A stretch of 64,000 nt of DNA from Limnospira fusiformis SAG 85.79 (GTDB taxonomy: Bacteria > Cyanobacteriota > Cyanobacteriia > Cyanobacteriales > Microcoleaceae), in NCBI RefSeq assembly GCF_012516315.1, contig NZ_CP051185.1, forward strand, positions 3,413,363 to 3,477,362, written 5' to 3'. A model generated the notes under the pieces. It was given only the letters and a program-made list of their open reading frames with translations. It ran no database searches and was not told the DNA's origin. Of this stretch, positions 46,080-55,681 are shown piece after piece. Made by a program: the position numbers and the translations under genes. Position 1 is the first letter of the stretch, and every line of letters begins with the position of its first letter.

Positions 46080-47099
46080 TTAGCAGGATTTCTCCAACCA
46101 AACTAGAGGGCAAATCTCTGAAGCTTGAGATTTGGTGCGCCCCACCATACTTAATCCTTTTGGCAATATGTTTAAAGCAGCGTTTCTATCACGGAAGTCT
46201 GTATATCTGCAATGAGGGCAGACATGAGTGCGAGTAGATAACGACTTTTCTACCCTTTGGTCACAATTAGAACAATTCTGAGAAGTATTATGGGGTGGAA
46301 CAGCAATAACCAATTTGCCATACTTATCCCCAAAATACCCTCGCCATCGTTTAAAAGTAGCCCATCCTGCATCGGTTATCGACTTGGCTAAACGATGATT
46401 TATAACCATACCTCGAACATTCAAGTCTTCACAAACTACCAAACCGTTAGATTGGACTAAACGGAGTGCCACGCTTTTGACAAACTCTTCTCGCTGTCTG
46501 CTTACTCTTAAATGTTTTTTGGCCTAAGGAGTTAAAGGGGTTATGGTATCTCTAGGATCTAATTTTATGGAGAATTGAACATAATATCCATCTGCTTGTC
46601 TAATAATCCTCACTCGCTTAATCTGTTCAGGCTGATAGTAATTAATATCCCTAGAGCCGATCAGCTTGAGCTTACCAATACCTTTTTGGTCGGTAAAAGT
46701 GATCTGCCGTTTATTGTCTGATAGTTTCCATCCAGAGACTTTATATTCTACCGAACGAGAATGTTTTTTGAATCTTGGATACCCCTTCTTCCCCTTGACC
46801 TGGTTTTGGCAATTCTCGTAAAAACGAGTAATGGCACCGAGAACCCTTTCAACTGTCGTTTGACAAGCATGATAGTTTAAATCCTTGACCAAATCAAACA
46901 CCTTCCGCAGTGCTGTGTTGCATCGAAATAAGTCAACCTTACCTATGCCACGATTGTCCATCCAATAACGAAGCACCTTATTGCCGACAAACTGTGCTGT
47001 CCGTATTGCTTCATCAATGGCTTCGACTTGATGTGGCTTGGGTTGGACTTTGTATTCGATCACCAACATTTTGACACTGTACGCGCTGGTATCAGCCAT
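46080..47099 (-). pseudogene. second tnpB (IS605/IS1341-type), internally deleted (RuvC-I region missing) and split
   Basis: The 191-aa N-terminal part (MLVIEYKVQPKP...) and the 130-aa C-terminal part (VVCEDLNVRGM...NTSQNCSNCDQ...HVCPHCRYT) are only 52 bp apart, so ~70 aa including the GIDxG motif are absent. A CGCGGGTT-AA-AACCCGCG hairpin at 47118..47140 resembles an IS200/605 end structure. Confidence 0.7.
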
Positions 47100-47409: not shown

Positions 47410-48051
47410 TTACAGTTCCAGAACAGCAACCACTAGCCTGTAACATAGAAGCTGATCATCAGAATTCCGCTTTTTCCAAGGTTGAGAAAGGCTAAGAACC
47501 ACCAGACATTCAGGACTTAAAATATAGTCATTGTCTAGTTTAGTACAAAGCTCTGGATCAGTCACGTTTAAGACCAAGCTGTTACCGCCCTCTAAAGGAA
47601 TTTCCCCTTTCCACTTCCCGTAATTATTGCACCAAGTTTTAAACCCGTCAACCTTGACTATTTGTAATGTACGTCTTTGATGGCGAGGCAATGAAGATAT
47701 GTATGAATAGGGGATAGCATTCAGCCAATCATGACAATGACTATGAATAATTTCATCATCACAATAACAAACTACGTCCATAGGGCTAACTCTGCCAATG
47801 TGCTTCCAGGAACCCCTTAAAATCAGTCTATTCTCGTATTCATATCCATTTCCTGTATCACTTAGAGGTATATCAACGATATCCAGAGGTTGGATAAGCC
47901 TTCCATTAATCTGAGACATATTTACCGGAATGCGACCATCATCCAATCTAGTCACAGGACGAACCCATTTACCTGTAGATATTTCTATCCCAGCAATACA
48001 ACGGTCATTGTTCTTCCGAGAATTAGCAAGACAAATTAATTTTGACATCAT
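47410..48051 (-). CDS. hypothetical Cys/His-rich protein (N-terminal MMSKLICLANSRKNNDRCIAG)
   Basis: 213-aa ORF, 9 bp downstream of the DUF488 gene. Contains a CYCDDEIIHSHCHDW cluster. Confidence 0.5.
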   Translation of the reverse strand: MMSKLICLANSRKNNDRCIAGIEISTGKWVRPVTRLDDGRIPVNMSQINGRLIQPLDIVDIPLSDTGNGYEYENRLILRGSWKHIGRVSPMDVVCYCDDEIIHSHCHDWLNAIPYSYISSLPRHQRRTLQIVKVDGFKTWCNNYGKWKGEIPLEGGNSLVLNVTDPELCTKLDNDYILSPECLVVLSLSQPWKKRNSDDQLLCYRLVVAVLEL

Positions 48052-48060
48052 CCTTACGAC

Positions 48061-48540
48061 TTATAGGTGATGAATGTTTATATTTCCCCATTTTTGGTTT
48101 AAGTATTCAGCAACTAAGCGACGATGACAGTTATGAGGTTTAGCCTCACTGCAAAGCAAACAGGCTCCATGAGCTAAATCTGGGGACAGTTTTTTTTCGA
48201 TTTGACGCTCCTCCATCAGCGTTAAAAATTTCTGCTCGTATATCGACCAATCTCCTTTTTTCTTTTTGTACTCATCAAGAATATCTTTGGTGGGAGCCAA
48301 GTCTAAAATATGCACATAATCAATATCGTTGATAGTTTTCAAGAAATACTCTAAGTCGGCTCTTTTAGCGAATCCCGCCAATTGAGATACGTTATTTAGG
48401 CGAGTGTCTATAACTGTCTTAACACCTGCTTTTTTAAGAGTTTCAAAGAAATTTTGTGCGCTCTTTTTAGTGAAACCTATGGTGAATAAATCAACCTTAT
48501 TTTTCATGGCTATTATCCGGTTCGACATAAGCAATCTCAT
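48061..48540 (-). CDS. DUF488 family protein
   Basis: DLFTIGFTKKSAQNFFETLKKAGVKTVIDTRLNN ... LLCSEAKPHNCHRRLVAEYL are both DUF488 hallmarks. Confidence 0.65.
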   Translation of the reverse strand: MRLLMSNRIIAMKNKVDLFTIGFTKKSAQNFFETLKKAGVKTVIDTRLNNVSQLAGFAKRADLEYFLKTINDIDYVHILDLAPTKDILDEYKKKKGDWSIYEQKFLTLMEERQIEKKLSPDLAHGACLLCSEAKPHNCHRRLVAEYLNQKWGNINIHHL

Positions 48541-49129
48541 CCCCCTGAAGTCGATAAGCTTGGCTCAAGCATTCTTCTCTTGTCGGTAAAATTTGGGGGG
48601 AAAATAGGGAAAGCTGAACTTCTTGTGAATCGCCAAAATCCCTAAAACCATGCTTGACAAGCATTCTATCTTCCAAATGCTCATGAGATTCTAAATCACC
48701 ATTCTTGAGGATGTGATTTATAGGGATATCCAAATCCCGTAAGTGCTGACAGACCAAGATGGCTCTGTGACAGGTTAATGGATCTTTTTCAGCACACATC
48801 AGCGAAATCTTATGTTTTTTCAAACCTTTCTGAAGTCGCTTAATTCCTTGGTGAAACGCATCTGTGAGGGCAATTCTTTCATATACGGCTTTACCATTGA
48901 TATAGCAGTCGGGGTTACTAGGTCTTGCACCCAGTTCCCGTCCCAGAAAAACATATTGAATTCCCTCTTTAGCGAGAAACTCTTGTAGGGATGAGCGATT
49001 GAAATGTGACAAGAATCGGCTGTAGGGATGTGAACGTACATCAGCAACAGCGGTTACTTGATGCTTTTGGAGCAGGGAGATAAAAGCATCTATCTCATGA
49101 TTAGAGTGACCGATACTGAATAACTCCAT
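48497..49129 (-). CDS. DUF488 family protein (long form with C-terminal extension)
   Basis: MELFSIGHSNHEIDAFISLLQKHQVTAVADVRSHPYSR ... LMCAEKDPLTCHRAILVCQHL. Overlaps the next gene by 44 nt. Confidence 0.65.
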   Translation of the reverse strand: MELFSIGHSNHEIDAFISLLQKHQVTAVADVRSHPYSRFLSHFNRSSLQEFLAKEGIQYVFLGRELGARPSNPDCYINGKAVYERIALTDAFHQGIKRLQKGLKKHKISLMCAEKDPLTCHRAILVCQHLRDLDIPINHILKNGDLESHEHLEDRMLVKHGFRDFGDSQEVQLSLFSPQILPTREECLSQAYRLQGDEIAYVEPDNSHEK

Positions 49130-49315: not shown

Positions 49316-49390
49316 CCCTATCCCATAACCCCTATGCCATAGGCCATAACCCATAACCCCTATCCCATAACCCCTATGCCATAGGCCAAT
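49316..49390. repeat. short tandem repeat (CCCATAA / CCCCTAT[C/G]CCATAGG units)
   Basis: cccataacccctatgccataggccataacccataacccctatcccataacccctatgccatagg; STRR-like heptamer-based repeats. Confidence 0.6.
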
Positions 49391-49557: not shown

Positions 49558-50023
49558 TCAACCCCCGATCGCCACAAACGCAGCCCAGTAGTAAGGAGAT
49601 GAAAAAGGTTGACTCTCGGATTTTTTGCCCCATTGCAAGGTAAATTTCATCTGCTCCTGCCATTTCGGTGCAATCGCCGGACAACTATCAATCCAGTCTA
49701 ACAAATTTTGCACTGTGGCTTCTCGCAGCCATTTCTGAGTCTGCTGCAACGCCGGAGCCACTGATGAATTAGGCTGCTGGTGGAGAATTTCATAAAAGCG
49801 AATCATTAAGATGGCAGTGGATAAATCATGTACACTCCACAGGGAGCAGACCACATTAGCAGAACCCGCCAAAAGAAATCCACTGGCTAAACTGATATAT
49901 TCATCGGTTTGGTCAACGGCGACTTGTCCAGTTTCAGAGGCGGAAAGGGTTACAAGGCGGCAGTTGCTCAGGTTCAGTTGGGTGATGATTTGTTCTAGGG
50001 GATTGGTGACAACTTAAGGCTAG
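49558..50023 (-). pseudogene. C-terminal fragment of a CHAT-domain (caspase-like) protease, N-terminus deleted
   Basis: Reads VVTNPLEQIITQLNLSNCRLVTLSASETGQVAVDQ...LLAGSANVVCSLWSVHDLSTAILMIRFYE...SPYYWAAFVAIGG. These are CHAT C-terminal signatures, but Ser replaces the usual catalytic Cys in SAC-E-T. Confidence 0.65.
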
Positions 50024-50473
50024 AGTGTAATTGTCAAGCTACTTTCGACAGCAGTTTGATGGAATGAGTCGTCCTCGCAAAAACAACCCAGATCATACTC
50101 GCCGCCACAATATGCCAGGGCCAAGTAGCGACGCGATTAAAGCCCACCTGAGCGACTTGTTGAGACCTGTGGTTCACGAGCAATTGAAATACTATCGCCA
50201 GTTGGGGTTGCGCTAACGAATTGTGGGGCTTCCTCTAATGGTGGCAGCAGTGTTGAGCCTGTTATGGCCTCAAAATGTGGGATCTCAAACCTTTCCATCC
50301 AAACCTCTAGCAACCTCTGAAAAAAACTGGGAGTTCCAACCAAGAAACCCCAGCTTTTTCCTTGTCTTCAAAAATGTGATCGCCCTGATCTGTAGTCTGT
50401 CTGAAACGTCCCTGCATCATGACCCAGCCTACTATTGATCACCATGACCCACAGGAAGCCATATCTGCGCAAA

Positions 50474-52471
50474 CTAGCGAATGTACTTTTTAAGAATACT
50501 ATTGCGATCGGAATGGCGGAGTTTACGCAACGCTTTAGCCTCAATTTGGCGAATGCGTTCGCGAGTCACATTAAAAATTTTGCCGATTTCTTCAAGAGTT
50601 TTCATCCGCCCATCATCGAGCCCGTAACGAAGTCGCAGGATATCCCGTTCACTGGGGCTTAATGTATCTAAGACACTTTCAAGATCTTCGCGCAACAACT
50701 TTTTAGAGACTTGAGCTTCAGGGGTTTCACCATCAGATTCAATGAAATCCCCCGGCTCTGGCTCTTCGGTAGGTGGGGGCGGTTCCTCAACTACAGAGGA
50801 GGATTCCAACTGTTCCGCATACTCTATATATGCTCCTCCCAATGACCTTAAAACCTGAGCCGTTACCCGGGCAAAAGCGATCGCATTCCCCTGAACTTCC
50901 CCTTCCCCTAACTGTTGCGGATTTCTCAAAATCGCCCCAAAATCTTCTACCGCAAAGCCCAAATTCCTCGCCACATAACCAGAAATCTCATCAATCACCC
51001 TCACCGTCTCATCCACCGGCATCAACTCTAACAATAACTCCCGGACTCCCGGCATAAAATCATATTGCACCAACTCTGGGTCAGTATCGATATTAATCTC
51101 CGATATCGGCTGCAATAACCCACCCAAAAACACCTCCGCTACATGGACTGGCAACGACTCTTTTAACAAATTTTCCTGAATCAACCGCACCACAGGTAAG
51201 GTAATCACAGGGGCTGCCGCCAACAACCCGGCTAATTTCCGCCCTACCCGAGAAGCCGTTGCCCGAAACCCGTTTACCCGCTTTTCCGCCGTCAATTCTC
51301 CCCCAGAATTGGGTCTGCGCCTCCGTCCTTGATGTTCTGCACACTTAAATAGATATCCTGCCGCCCAAACTTTACCTTTCCCCGCCAATAATCGCGCCCA
51401 AGTCCCTACGGATTCCGGTTCTAAGGTAAAAATCGGCACTTTCACCACCGAATGAGCCACTTCCTCATCCCACCACAAGGGGAATTCATCAACCTTTAAA
51501 TTCTGATTCCAATCTCCGGGATTGAGTCCCTGTAACCTCACCAACGCTTCCCAACCTAAACCGCTTCTTTTCCACATCCATTCAGGCAGCATCTGCAAAA
51601 TAGCCATCGACCCCCGTTTCGCCCACAGGTCTAAAATGGGAGTCATTTTCCCCTCTCGCCACACTTTCGAGACACAATCACTCACCACAATCACTAACCG
51701 TCGCCCAGTGGGGTCGATTAATTCCTTGGGACTGCGAGGGGCTTGATGTTTCGCCGTTGCCCCAATCCCCCGCCGAATTTTGACCGCTTCCGGGTTATCG
51801 GTGAGCAAACTCCAAACTCGGACATCTCGGAAAATTCCATAGTTCTTGAGGAGTTTTTCTAAGTCTCGCAGGGTATGCCGCCACAGCAACATCGAGAGGG
51901 AATCCTCAATCACTAAATCTAAGTCTAACCAAGGTTCTAGGCGAGGTTTTAAAACCGGAATCCAAATCCCTTGGCTGGCAATTTGTTCGCTAGTGGCGAC
52001 TTCATCAATCACCCAATCTCGTCCCCCAGAAACTCGACGCATCAGGGGTTTTAAGGCTCTGGCTAAGGTCAGAGGTTCCCGGAGTGAGGGGGCATCGGAA
52101 ACTCGAATGGGTAAACCCCCTCCACCCGCAGCGGTTTGACTGGGTTCCGGTTTAGGGACAATTTCCCCTTGGGGCGGTTGGGGGGTTGCTGGGGTAGCAG
52201 GGGCAGGAGGTTGGTTTTCTGGGAGATTCTCTGGAGGGGTTGTGGCGGAATCCTCTGGGGTAGGGGGTTGAGGGGCTGGTTCTGTGGGCGGTTGGGATGA
52301 ACTGCTGCTGTCGGTGGGGGGTTCAGCCCCAGGAGAAGCACTGGCTTCCTCTGGGGGGGTTACAGATTCAGAATATTGGTCAATGTGGCAAGCCAGCCAA
52401 AAGACATCCGCAATATCTTGGGCGGAGAGTTGAAATTCCTGTTGTAAGGCTTGAACCAAGTCGGGATTCAT
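50474..52471 (-). CDS. MoxR-associated protein: Pro-rich N-terminal linker, possible vWA-like middle region, C-terminal sigma-70 region 3.2-4 module
   Basis: The last ~95 aa ([92 protein letters not shown]) are near-consensus group 1/2 sigma region 3.2 + 4.2. The start ATG overlaps the MoxR stop (ATGA). Confidence 0.6.
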
Positions 52472-53553
52472 TAGTCTTCTGAACTGTTCAGATACTTCAT
52501 TAAGATTGTTACCAAATCTTGCTCGTCGCTGACTTCCGGTTTTAAGTCTCGCGTCACCATATAAATGGCATTTAAGAGTTGGTCGGTGGCGAGGTCTCCC
52601 TGGCTGCGACGCTTGATAAACTGGTCGATGAGTTGATTAATTTTTGCGGGGTTTTGGGTGAGGCTATCTTCCCCTAAATGGGCTTCGACAATTTCTTTTA
52701 AGGCGGTAGAATTGGGTTGATAGGGCATGGATAGTCTTAAACAACGCCGGAGAAAAGCTGGGGGAAAATCCCGTTCTCCATTGTTGGTGAGGATAATCAA
52801 GGGAAAGTTACAGCAGCGAATTTTCCCATTTTGGACGGGAACTGAAATTCCATCAGCGGTGGTGACTTCGACTTGATTTTGCTCTGGGCTAATGCGGGCG
52901 AGTTCGGGAATGGGGAATTCCCCTTCTTCAAATAGGTTGAGGAGGTCGTTGGGGAGGTTGATGTCACTTTTATCAATCTCATCGATGAGTAGAACTCTGG
53001 GACGATGAGCGGGTAAGAGGGCGGTTCCTAATGGACCGAGGGTGATGTAACGACCGATATCTTTACTTTGGTCGCCCATTTGAACGTCCTGGAGACGGGC
53101 GATCGCATCATAACGATAGAGTCCATCTTGCAAGGTGGAACGAGCGGTAATATACCACGGCAACACCGGACCCAGTTTCAATTCGTAAGCCACCGCATAG
53201 GCTAAGGAGGTTTTCCCCGTTCCCGGTTTCCCGGTTACTAACAGGGGTCGCCTCAGATATAAGGCAGCATTGACCATATTCACCACCCGATTTTGCTCCT
53301 GGGTCTCAGGGCTATGAATCCGAAAACTTTTCCCCCGTTTTTGGTCGCGAGTTTCCGAGTCCAAAGTCTGTAAAAAATCGTTCCAGCGGCTGGCAATTTC
53401 TGCCACCAAACTCTCTTCTACTCCCGTAAACTGTCGCCAACTCGGAGGCGGCGGCAATTTCTCAATCCCATCATGGGGGTCATGATTTCCTTGAAAGATT
53501 TTCCAGGTGTTCATAGGGTTAGGTGGGTTATTCTCCGGGTTGCATGAGTTCAA
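52471..53553 (-). CDS. MoxR-type AAA+ ATPase (AAA_5)
   Basis: Walker [16 protein letters not shown]; Walker [12 protein letters not shown]; sensor regions; ~100-aa N-terminal extension. Confidence 0.8.
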
Positions 53554-55681
53554 TCATCATCTCAGGGGTGAGACGATAAGGGTCTTCCCAGAGAAAGCCT
53601 AAATGACATCCGAGATGATCGGGTCCATTTCCTCGGGATTGCGATCGCAGTTCTTGGACTGACTCCGTTAACTGACGCAAAGGGCGACAGGTGAGGAGTT
53701 GATTGATACTCTCAGCATAGTTGGAATTGGCATCAGGGCATCGGGGCCAAAGGGCGATCGGTGTTGCTGCTTGTAACATGGCTTTGACTAAAACCTGGAA
53801 CTGCTCAGAGGCGGTGGGACAAGTCAGCTTTAAGCCTATTTTCTGGGTTAATTGGTGGGGCAGTTGCCGAGAGTTGAAGCTGTGGAGGTCTTCTAGGCTC
53901 TCAAAACTTTCTAACGGGGGATATTGGTCTAAAATCTGGCTGACTTTCCCCCAGTTTTCATACCACTGATTGAGGTAATTGTCAAGATAATCGAGATTTA
54001 ATCGTTCAAGCGATCGCACTCGCAGTCCGTACCTCATTCCCCAACAAAATTCACTATCAATGGGGTCAAATTCTAATTGCCATTGGTCAACTTCGGTACT
54101 GAGAAACTCTTGGGGCAAAAACACTTCAATAGTTAAATGATACCGCTTTCCTCTCAGCAACTTTAAGGCTTTTCTGAGACATTGATTTAACACACTCTGA
54201 ATCTCCGCCTGAGTACAACTTAACCCATATTCCCCAGGTTCATCTAACAGCGGCTTAAACGCGGTATTGGGGTCATTTTGGATTAAGGAATTATCCTTCA
54301 CTAGCCAAGCCTTGACGATGAATTGCTCAGACTTTTTCTGGGACTCCACAGTAACCAGCACATAAGACTCTAAGGGATGGGGTAAATTATCGGCTTCTTT
54401 CTGGGATGTCTGATTTTCCAATAAGTTTAAGAATTTATCTAAGCATTGATACCGCAAAATCTGGGTCAAGCTGCTGAGTTCAGAAGGTGAAAATTTATCC
54501 TCTAAAATAGCATCATCTGGTAATTCAGTATGGGCAAACTCTATGACATCTTTATCATAACCAATACCCTGCAATATTTGAAGAATTTGTTGCGATATCC
54601 CTTCAAAATTCATAGGTTTTCTATCTTCAAACATCCCAGGAATGGGGAGGATAGTCGATGATTTTAATAGAGTTTTGATTTCCTCAATCCCTTGATTGGC
54701 TTGGTCAACCCCGGCTTGAAGTTCTTCAAGTTGCCAGGGAATGCTCTGTAAAATCTCTCGAATACTGCCATAACTCGACTCAAGGCTTGCGGAAATCTCT
54801 CGCAGGGTTTGCCGTTGTTGTTCTTCGCTAACCTCCTTAAGTTTACCCTGTAAGTCATCAAAATGTTGTTGGATTTTGGCAAACTCTAGAATCTGATAGG
54901 CTTGACTGGCTTCGCCGTCATTTTTGAGTTGCAGTAATTGGCTTAAAACACTTCCAAACTGAGTATTTTGCTGTTCATTTAGCCCAGCCAAGTCAGTCTG
55001 CAACCTGGTCAGTAAATCCAACATTAACCCCGCGAAAGCCTTACCATCTTCGGCAAAATCTTCCTTGAGGGTTTGACGGAAGGCTTGGGGGAACTCATCA
55101 TAAAGCAATTCGGAGACTGTGGCAGAAACTCCATCAGGAAACTGAAATCCTCCACCCGGACAGGCTTCCATATTCAGCCGTCTAAAAATATCTTGCCAAT
55201 CTTCCAGTTCCAGGATTTCATCACCCTTTGGAATCAGGATATCTGGGAGTTTACCCTCACCAAGTTCTGGGTATCTTTCCGATTCTCCTGTCTCTTCATT
55301 TAGCCAACGACTCCATAAATCTACCCATTTGTCGGGGGTGATTTCGGCAATCTTCAGAAGATGGTGACGAGTCTTTCTATCATGCTTAAACTTAGGGACG
55401 GCTTTATCGGTAATAATGGCGGCGATCGCTTTGCCAACGGCTTGAATTAAATCCTGGTTTTTTAAAGAAACCCCAGGATGTCCGGTGGTGGCATCCCCTA
55501 ACTCATTCGCCACATTTCCGGCTATAACTGAGCCAATAGCCTTGCAAGTTTCTCCCAAAAACTCTTGAGCCTCTGGGTTCGAGAGTAACCCCACGACACC
55601 CAAGGCTGGGGGGAATGTGCAGGTTGCAACATAGCAGGCTCCAAATACTCCCAGCCGATAGAGGGTCTTTTTGACCGCCAT
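53528..55681 (-). CDS. large uncharacterized protein (717 aa, central coiled coil), first gene of the MoxR operon
   Basis: Long ORF overlapping the MoxR start by 26 nt. Central heptad-rich region; no motif I can name. Confidence 0.5.
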   Translation of the reverse strand: MAVKKTLYRLGVFGACYVATCTFPPALGVVGLLSNPEAQEFLGETCKAIGSVIAGNVANELGDATTGHPGVSLKNQDLIQAVGKAIAAIITDKAVPKFKHDRKTRHHLLKIAEITPDKWVDLWSRWLNEETGESERYPELGEGKLPDILIPKGDEILELEDWQDIFRRLNMEACPGGGFQFPDGVSATVSELLYDEFPQAFRQTLKEDFAEDGKAFAGLMLDLLTRLQTDLAGLNEQQNTQFGSVLSQLLQLKNDGEASQAYQILEFAKIQQHFDDLQGKLKEVSEEQQRQTLREISASLESSYGSIREILQSIPWQLEELQAGVDQANQGIEEIKTLLKSSTILPIPGMFEDRKPMNFEGISQQILQILQGIGYDKDVIEFAHTELPDDAILEDKFSPSELSSLTQILRYQCLDKFLNLLENQTSQKEADNLPHPLESYVLVTVESQKKSEQFIVKAWLVKDNSLIQNDPNTAFKPLLDEPGEYGLSCTQAEIQSVLNQCLRKALKLLRGKRYHLTIEVFLPQEFLSTEVDQWQLEFDPIDSEFCWGMRYGLRVRSLERLNLDYLDNYLNQWYENWGKVSQILDQYPPLESFESLEDLHSFNSRQLPHQLTQKIGLKLTCPTASEQFQVLVKAMLQAATPIALWPRCPDANSNYAESINQLLTCRPLRQLTESVQELRSQSRGNGPDHLGCHLGFLWEDPYRLTPEMMIELMQPGE

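Follow-up and report, generated by a model that had tools for sequence, protein, structure and literature searches.

The DNA analyzed here, hereafter the window, is a stretch of 64,000 nucleotides (nt) from Limnospira fusiformis SAG 85.79 (contig NZ_CP051185.1, positions 3,413,363 to 3,477,362 of the forward strand). It holds an open reading frame (ORF) of 665 codons that joins a vWA-family protein to the C-terminal end of a SigA-type, primary sigma factor. In window coordinates, with amino acids abbreviated as aa, this ORF, its parts, and the two genes next to it are laid out as follows.

50474..52471, minus strand: vWA-sigma fusion ORF, 665 aa, an exact protein match to QJB27134.1 of Limnospira fusiformis SAG 85.79
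50753..52471, minus strand: aa 1-573 of the fusion, the vWA-family part (NCBIfam NF041121, E 9e-145)
50753..50754: left junction, after codon 573 (TEEPEP / GDFIE), where homology to the TPR-CHAT alleles discussed below stops
50477..50752, minus strand: sigma piece of 92 aa (aa 574-665), holding regions 4.1 and 4.2 and, ahead of them, the C-terminal half of region 3.2
50474-50476, minus strand: stop codon of the fusion ORF, which is the native sigma stop
52471..53553, minus strand: MoxR-like AAA+ ATPase gene, 360 aa (Pfam AAA_5, E 6e-10; AAA, E 5e-9)
53528..55681, minus strand: VMAP gene, listed at 717 aa (716 aa in related records; Pfam PF20028 VMAP-C at aa 453-701, E 1.5e-33)

The fusion protein and its host system

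An earlier reading of this DNA from its letters, called here the sequence-only reading, had proposed a sigma module grafted onto a non-sigma protein, and this is what we find. The last 92 aa comprise half of region 3.2 and all of region 4, of SigA type, and the breakpoint had been placed at GDFIE, correctly to within 8 nt. Sigma70_r4 (PF04545) is the sole Pfam domain of the 665-aa protein (aa 600-653, E 8.7e-20, 70 bits against a cut-off of 24). Upstream of GDFIE lies a vWA-family linker, rich in P and E and closing in TEEPEP; the sigma piece follows it in frame and reaches the native sigma C-terminus. The upstream part had also rightly been said to lack regions 1.2-3.1. No Pfam or NCBIfam model matches region 1.2, 2, or 3.0/3.1 anywhere in the protein, and aa 17-505 match SAV_2336_NTERM instead. 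No second copy of the sigma piece was found within the 64-kb window.

At NCBI, both QJB27134.1 and P0121 (MDT9178231.1 and others) are labeled "sigma-70 family RNA polymerase sigma factor," the latter being a 166-aa gene call in PMC strains that begins at an internal GTG within the 665-codon ORF. These names speak for a genuine sigma factor, or for a separate 166-aa sigma-4 protein started at that GTG, but either is very improbable. Every RpoD or Sig model aligns the 665-aa protein only from profile position ~294 on, in keeping with the absence of regions 1.2, 2, and 3.0/3.1. The NCBIfam model of cyanobacterial RpoD, PRK07406, pairs aa 562-665 with profile positions 294-397 only and scores 180 bits (E 7e-53), far under its 500-bit cut-off. 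The 166-aa call, for its part, starts inside a conserved helical region of the vWA family, in an ORF that is open for 665 codons. The missing sigma-2 domain ruled out the 665-aa protein as a true sigma factor and makes sigma-factor activity of the protein impossible. The label carried by QJB27134.1 and by the 166-aa calls is misleading because it is based on region 4 alone.

The sequence-only reading was correct in calling the remainder of the protein non-sigma but missed that it belongs to a known family. SAV_2336_NTERM (NF041121) covers aa 17-505 with 483 bits against a cut-off of 200. The VMAP-C match of the gene at 53528-55681 scores 117 bits (cut-off 27), and a VMAP gene is likewise called in the related loci of the complete genome CP162027.1 (L001), of L. 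indica CP060212.1 (L003), and of L. maxima CS-328 (L086). The adjacency of a MoxR gene was borne out as well: the stop of the 360-aa AAA+ gene overlaps the vWA start codon on the same strand, and the assignment of this ATPase to the MoxR clade follows from its AAA_5 match and gene context rather than from phylogeny. Because the VMAP-C, AAA_5, and SAV_2336_NTERM matches fall on three adjacent same-strand genes, the 665-aa protein is shown, at the level of sequence, to be the vWA (SAV_2336-type) subunit of a VMAP-MoxR-vWA ternary conflict system, which is defense-like. Such "classical ternary" systems were described by Kaur, Burroughs, Iyer, and Aravind (2020, eLife; PMC7159879) as enriched in filamentous cyanobacteria, with an anti-invader action and threshold-triggered cell death that are predicted only. 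In the window's VMAP, Pfam gives the N-terminal 450 aa no family match and no recognizable effector domain.

The first 573 aa of the fusion consist of SAV_2336-type N-terminal helices, a Pro-rich disordered stretch, a vWA alpha/beta core (~aa 147-376), a helical region reaching to ~aa 557, and the P/E-rich linker. A motif resembling a metal ion-dependent adhesion site (ExSxS/DxSxS, at EDSLS) and an SDC motif are conserved among homologs. In an AlphaFold model based on an alignment of 64 homologs, the core is alpha/beta over ~aa 147-376, with a predicted local distance difference test (pLDDT) score of 80-89. Its best Foldseek match in the PDB, at only E 9e-4 and a TM score of 0.36, is chain 9qhe_G of the NorQD complex. 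NorQD is a MoxR-vWA pair. The tail was modeled at pLDDT ~57-66, a low confidence explained by the fact that only 3 of the 64 aligned sequences carry the tail, and this part of the model is not used for inference.

A search of 5.8 billion proteins returned 498 homologs, which share a core conserved to near aa 552 and carry after it dozens of differing C-terminal domains; among the 120 homologs listed, the tails include GUN4, caspase, Ras-like GTPase, FGE-sulfatase, EVE, cyanophycinase, NACHT, TPR, and others. In ternary systems at large, the vWA C-terminal position swaps modules continually between close relatives, with 163 architectures and 86 C-terminal domains, an unspecified helix-turn-helix (HTH) included (PMC7159879). 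Within Limnospira the vWA tail varies too, being TPR-CHAT, split by an inserted ORF, or sigma-4.

Origin and spread of the sigma-bearing allele

The closest orthologs of the fusion protein (in L. maxima, L. indica, A. platensis C1, and PMC 894.15) are without the sigma module and carry TPR-CHAT. The L. maxima CS-328 gene P0243 (1436 aa) differs from the 665-aa protein by ~8 substitutions in the first ~290 residues and otherwise matches it to residue 573, after which it continues into TPR repeats and a CHAT caspase-like domain. The two loci are collinear. Window 60000-50754 corresponds to L086 2485-11718 and window 49599-44741 to L086 14261-19117, with DUF488, DUF488, DuOB, and TnpB genes downstream in both. 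Between these blocks, 1154 bp of the window (50753-49600) stand in for 2542 bp of L086 TPR-CHAT coding sequence. They are made up of the sigma piece with its stop (50752-50474), ~500 bp with a remnant of an IS4-family insertion sequence (IS), and 374 bp of a divergent CHAT 3′ end. The two remnants are located as follows.

50031..50438, plus strand: IS4-family transposase remnant (tblastn against IS4 transposases on Nostoc/Calothrix plasmids, 44-53% identity, E 6e-16)
49558..49977, minus strand: CHAT gene 3′ remnant, a 139-aa ORF (Pfam CHAT, E 7e-27, profile positions 185-288 of 289)

The IS4 remnant retains the N-terminal ~100-135 codons only, has an in-frame stop at 50217-50219, and is cut short toward the sigma piece. 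It contains no DDE domain, no inverted repeats bracket it, and it is not an intact IS. The CHAT remnant (49600-49973) is a divergent allele with 80% identity to its L. indica counterpart, and from 49599 downward the window is 99% identical to L. maxima (both by blastn). These comparisons show an IS4-associated replacement of the TPR-CHAT tail, by which the sigma tail came. In L. indica CP060212.1 the same gene is split in another manner, by a 347-aa ORF of unidentified family inserted after residue 686 (L003 12139-13180). Because sister strains carry TPR-CHAT, an inserted ORF, or a sigma tail at the same gene, the locus is, to judge from these alleles, a hotspot of structural change that is decaying or turning over in several ways.

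This history bears directly on whether the tail does anything at all. An IS4-linked rearrangement may have destroyed the TPR-CHAT effector tail while a stray sigA-like 3′ piece landed in frame, leaving a tail that has been idle since. We take this to be a serious contender, with somewhat less than an even chance, and it is quite conceivable that the ternary system with this allele then lacks an effector or is dead. The truncated IS4 and CHAT 3′ remnants lie directly downstream, the nearest orthologs carry TPR-CHAT, and other strains have other lesions (the 347-aa ORF of L. indica and a frameshift in L001). The sequence-only reading had itself offered a recombination scar as an alternative. The flanking remnants and the tails of the closest orthologs agree with that idea, but an independent capture in a second lineage, described below, keeps a function possible.

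Records of the last 166 aa of the fusion exist for 20 contigs; one is the complete genome CP162027.1, and the others are drafts or metagenome-assembled genomes. The loci L001 (CP162027.1) and L002 are collinear with the window at ~99% identity, junction included, and the 665-codon ORF is intact in L002. An assembly chimera, raised by the sequence-only reading as a mis-join at ~50760 and considered by us at ~50755, has only the abrupt change of homology in its favor. It is not borne out, and we allow it next to no probability, because the same junction with its flanks recurs in independently assembled complete genomes (the window's strain and CP162027.1) and on 19 further contigs, so that at least 21 independent assemblies have it in identical form. 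The sequence-only reading had also tied a local rearrangement or chimera to a uniform lack of the module among orthologs. The closest orthologs do lack it, but the junction recurs in other assemblies, and two proteins of the second lineage (P0009 and P0010) carry a SigA region 4 of their own.

The window and L002 alleles differ at 57 nt in the vWA part (33 synonymous and 22 non-synonymous codons) but show no difference from codon 535 onward, in the sigma piece and past it. In the 19.5 kb that the window and L001 have in common, the three system genes hold most of the divergence, with peaks of ~7% at 51000-51500 (vWA core) and 54500-55000 (VMAP gene), and the flanking 10 kb are near-identical. 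These peaks resemble the hotspots, allelic or of recombination, that immune-like loci typically have. The window's N-terminal allele is nt-identical to the L. maxima TPR-CHAT allele over codons ~440-563, and the L002 allele resembles the TPR-CHAT proteins P0245 and P0001. Since two N-terminal allele types carry the sigma tail, the tail must have recombined onto at least two backgrounds. The strain comparison shows the sigma-bearing allele to be real and polymorphic in the genus, on two or more N-terminal backgrounds. In the 25 nt upstream of the junction, six differences from TPR-CHAT alleles, all of them synonymous third-position changes, are common to both sigma-bearing alleles. These private changes indicate that the sigma-bearing allele has a linker history of its own, older than the present combination.

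Two further features of the surroundings may be recorded. Just downstream of the CHAT remnant, at 49316-49388, is a tandem array with a 14-nt period (CCCATAACCCCTAT-like), and HIP1 (GCGATCGC) motifs are scattered through the region. Farther along, the DUF488, DUF488, and DuOB genes (47410-49129, minus strand) have matches (E 1.6e-23 to 1.3e-74) to each of the three components that make up the PADLOC candidate system PDC-M45. Because these PDC-M45-like genes lie directly downstream, the ternary system appears to sit in a defense island. An N-terminal fragment of the TnpB RNA-guided endonuclease (191 aa; NF040570, E 2.4e-17) occupies 46524-47099 on the minus strand; in related loci a separate 130-aa ORF with a Cas12f1-like_TNB domain is called beside this fragment.

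Character and recurrence of the sigma piece

We compared the piece with a panel of 205 cyanobacterial SigA proteins, which yield 40 unique 92-aa C-termini; piece positions plus 520 correspond to E. coli sigma-70 numbering. Identity of the piece to the SigA consensus is 89%, and to no single real SigA does it exceed 91.3%, the nearest being of Microcoleus/Tychonema type. None of the real SigAs in the panel falls below 93.5% identity to the consensus. The piece has seven residues (K18, S34, I38, K58, S81, D82, and K89) that never occur in the panel. Thus the sequence-only reading had the type of match right, and its phrase "almost residue for residue" slightly overstated the degree.

The composition of the piece (GC 0.44; GC at third codon positions 0.39) equals the window average, and its third-position identity to Hormoscilla and other sigA genes, at ~0.45-0.49, is saturated. 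Neither the S34+I38 peptide nor an exact 30-mer from the piece was found in metagenome scans. The piece is evidently not a verbatim SigA copy. It is, rather, a copy of the 3′ end of a native-type sigA that has diverged and is no longer held by some of the constraints on a primary sigma. It also pre-dates the present arrangement, because it is at least 8 residues removed from every known SigA, yet its upstream flank (codons ~440-563) is nt-identical to a TPR-CHAT allele. Two other sources of the piece and its changes were considered and rejected: a viral or plasmid origin (best viral match 64%, best plasmid match 72% over half of the piece), and adenine mutagenesis of the diversity-generating retroelement type (only ~2 of 8 private changes at adenines, with codons read against consensus residues).

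The DNA-recognition helix is intact, with R584, E585, R588, and Q589 (E. coli numbering) all present. When the published lists of -35-contact and core-binding residues (PMC4943231) are applied, 15 of 16 -35-contact positions and 6 of 6 core-binding positions match the cyanobacterial SigA consensus, the exception being R554S.

A similar module occurs in a second lineage. P0009 (646 aa) and P0010 (1040 aa), two Nostocales-like proteins from ENA metagenomes, are ~55% identical to the fusion over the vWA part. Both belong to complete VMAP-MoxR-vWA operons (L084 and L085), and in both the vWA core gives way at once to a SigA-type region 4. This module is internal in P0010, where a STAND-type NTPase comes after it. 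At SigA-variable positions their module is of the K26/S30 type (e.g., Gloeocapsopsis), whereas the Limnospira piece is of the S26/T30/I86 Oscillatoriales type, and the 5′ breakpoints lie at ~T10 in P0009 and P0010 versus G1 in Limnospira. Because both SigA lineage and 5′ breakpoint differ, these are two independent captures. The same ~300-bp sigma gene end was thus captured twice at the same architectural position, which is hard to ascribe to chance. The second capture suggests that the tail may be a usable cargo module. The invariant RHPNR turn is changed in both modules (P81S and N82D in Limnospira; H80D and N84T in P0009), an observation made post hoc.

Sigma tails of the extracytoplasmic function (ECF) type are found on the homologs P0035, P0047, P0052, and P0088. 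Beyond these systems, the top 150 matches among 1.84 billion representative proteins contain no further SigA-type region-4 graft on a non-sigma protein; the long matches among them are complete sigmas with extensions. Five proteins of 589-1692 aa (P0455, P0456, P0493, P0506, and P0508) have 7-15 tandem sigma-region-4-like stretches. Other cyanobacterial assemblies hold short damaged or partial SigA C-termini (P0123, P0147, and P0154), among them a deletion joining regions 2 and 3.1 and region-4-only pieces. Such 3′ fragments of sigma genes are thus found elsewhere too.

Possible function and comparison with known systems

The reading that we favor, with a probability of roughly 45%, is that the tail is kept as a working module, directed at -35 elements or RNA polymerase, in the vWA cargo position. 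That the tail is a usable module is suggested by the independent capture, by the intact recognition helix, by the ECF-type tails elsewhere, and by the HTH cargo known in the family. The scheme would follow the effector model of Kaur et al. for ternary systems. The sigma-4 HTH would still recognize -35-type hexamers and/or the RNA polymerase beta-flap, and the vWA-MoxR chaperone pair would hold the tail silent. On firing of the system, the tail would be exposed or released and could then block or redirect SigA-dependent transcription.

Several observations weigh against a working tail. The piece begins in the middle of region 3.2 and not at a domain border, ends at its native stop, and abuts a truncated IS; together these give it the look of a captured gene fragment, and an accidental join has a 1-in-3 chance of being in frame. 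Three of its substitutions (R554S, V558I, and P601S) hit positions that are invariant in the 40 unique cyanobacterial sequences and in 74 RpoD proteins of other phyla. Its private substitutions do not fall preferentially at tolerant sites (Mann-Whitney p = 0.59), a pattern that fits relaxed constraint. In L001, a 1-nt insertion falls at codon 90, in the Pro-rich region. There are 0 nt differences inside the piece among Limnospira strains, and likewise between L084 and L085, so that selection on the piece is not measurable. Finally, Pfam recognizes in VMAP no peptidase able to free the tail.

The mid-region start, the native stop, and the changes at universally invariant positions, with no bias to variable sites, are also what an idle piece would show, and stand-alone or damaged sigma-4 fragments such as P0123, P0147, and P0154 make its arrival easier to accept. 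However, if the tail were idle, chance alone would have had to hit a ~300-bp target in a ~6-Mb genome twice, and at the same position. The ORF is, moreover, intact on two allelic backgrounds, the DNA-recognition helix and core-binding residues are unchanged, and the piece is older than the arrangement in which it now lies.

A tail that works need not be an effector. By analogy with the integrated decoys of plant NLR receptors, the SigA-like region 4 could be bait for phage proteins that seize the primary sigma or the beta-flap (of AsiA, gp39, or P7 type), with binding relayed through vWA and MoxR to the VMAP effector, a device that would have evolved at least two times in filamentous cyanobacteria. 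A decoy had been among the proposals of the sequence-only reading; we consider it unlikely. The module is of primary-sigma type in both lineages, 89-93% identical to the authentic target, and has kept its interaction surfaces; the locus also lies in a defense island, beside the PDC-M45-like genes. However, the altered invariant surface residues (R554S, P601S, N602D, and E609K) would make a poorer mimic, and the VMAP N-terminus, to which the signal would pass, has no recognizable effector domain. We also know of no Limnospira phage factor of the AsiA, gp39, or P7 kind, which counts against bait. Phage factors aimed at sigma region 4 or the beta-flap are nonetheless well documented (PMC6755090, PMC3950348, PMC3985653), and a published alternative model by Dore et al. 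has the vWA tail as a sensor, not an effector (bioRxiv 10.1101/2023.09.22.558884).

If the tail works, as our favored reading has it, ternary MoxR-vWA systems can use a housekeeping sigma fragment as cargo, which would link them to RNA polymerase. The fragment could then block transcription or act as bait for phage proteins that hijack sigma. It would also be easy to handle in experiments, being a module of 92 residues whose ligands, -35 DNA and the beta-flap, are known. Limnospira (Spirulina) is an industrial organism, with natural comparison strains that carry TPR-CHAT, interrupted, or sigma tails. Should the tail be a scar, the locus is of practical use in exposing a misleading GenBank name (QJB27134.1 and the 166-aa calls) and in documenting the remodeling of defense genes by IS elements. 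Interest would be high only if a decoy or transcription-blocking role were demonstrated.

It is useful to set the locus beside the systems that it resembles. The ternary systems of PMC7159879 share with it the gene triad, the gene order, the SAV_2336-type core, and the swappable position after that core. They differ in that the cargo here is a housekeeping sigma fragment, half of region 3.2 plus region 4, and in that the Limnospira VMAP is without a recognizable peptidase or effector-associated domain (EAD). The word "sigma" is absent from the main text and one supplement of PMC7159879. What was known, then, is the ternary system and its tail swapping; what is new is the primary-sigma region-4 tail, unmentioned in those parts of the defining paper.

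Sigma-related modules are known from other conflict systems. ECF-sigma-like HTH modules are fused to TRADD-N and other conflict-system proteins and have been read as transcriptional output (Kaur et al. 2021, eLife; PMC8195603). These, and the ECF-type tails of P0035, P0047, P0052, and P0088, share with the Limnospira tail a sigma-derived DNA-binding module in a variable position. However, they comprise region 2 plus region 4, and are potentially complete minimal sigmas, whereas the Limnospira tail is region 4 only and of primary-sigma type. MzaA of the Mza anti-phage system (NCBIfam NF041931; PADLOC PDLC02203) is likewise a sigma-70-related protein within a defense system, and the tail matches it over region 4. 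The match is confined to positions 586-667 of 683 (PADLOC) or 627-714 of 726 (NCBIfam), with 103 bits against an 800-bit cut-off, and a PADLOC scan of six neighboring genes matched no other Mza gene. We therefore rejected MzaA as the identity of the 665-aa protein, on the region-4-only match, its score, and the lack of Mza partners. T4 AsiA/MotA, P23-45 gp39, and Xp10 P7 concern the same sigma region 4/beta-flap surface, but they bind sigma-4 and are not copies of it, and would be possible ligands only if the tail is bait.

There is also the parallel in design with P0009 and P0010. In both lineages a like operon carries a SigA-type region 4 right after the vWA core, with the recognition helix intact and the RHPNR turn altered. 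The differences lie in the SigA lineage and 5′ breakpoint, in the internal placement of the P0010 module before its STAND NTPase, and in the company that the tail keeps. At L084 3288-8637, VMAP and three neighboring genes carry EAD10 adaptor domains and lie beside caspase and NACHT genes, an effector set richer than that of Limnospira.

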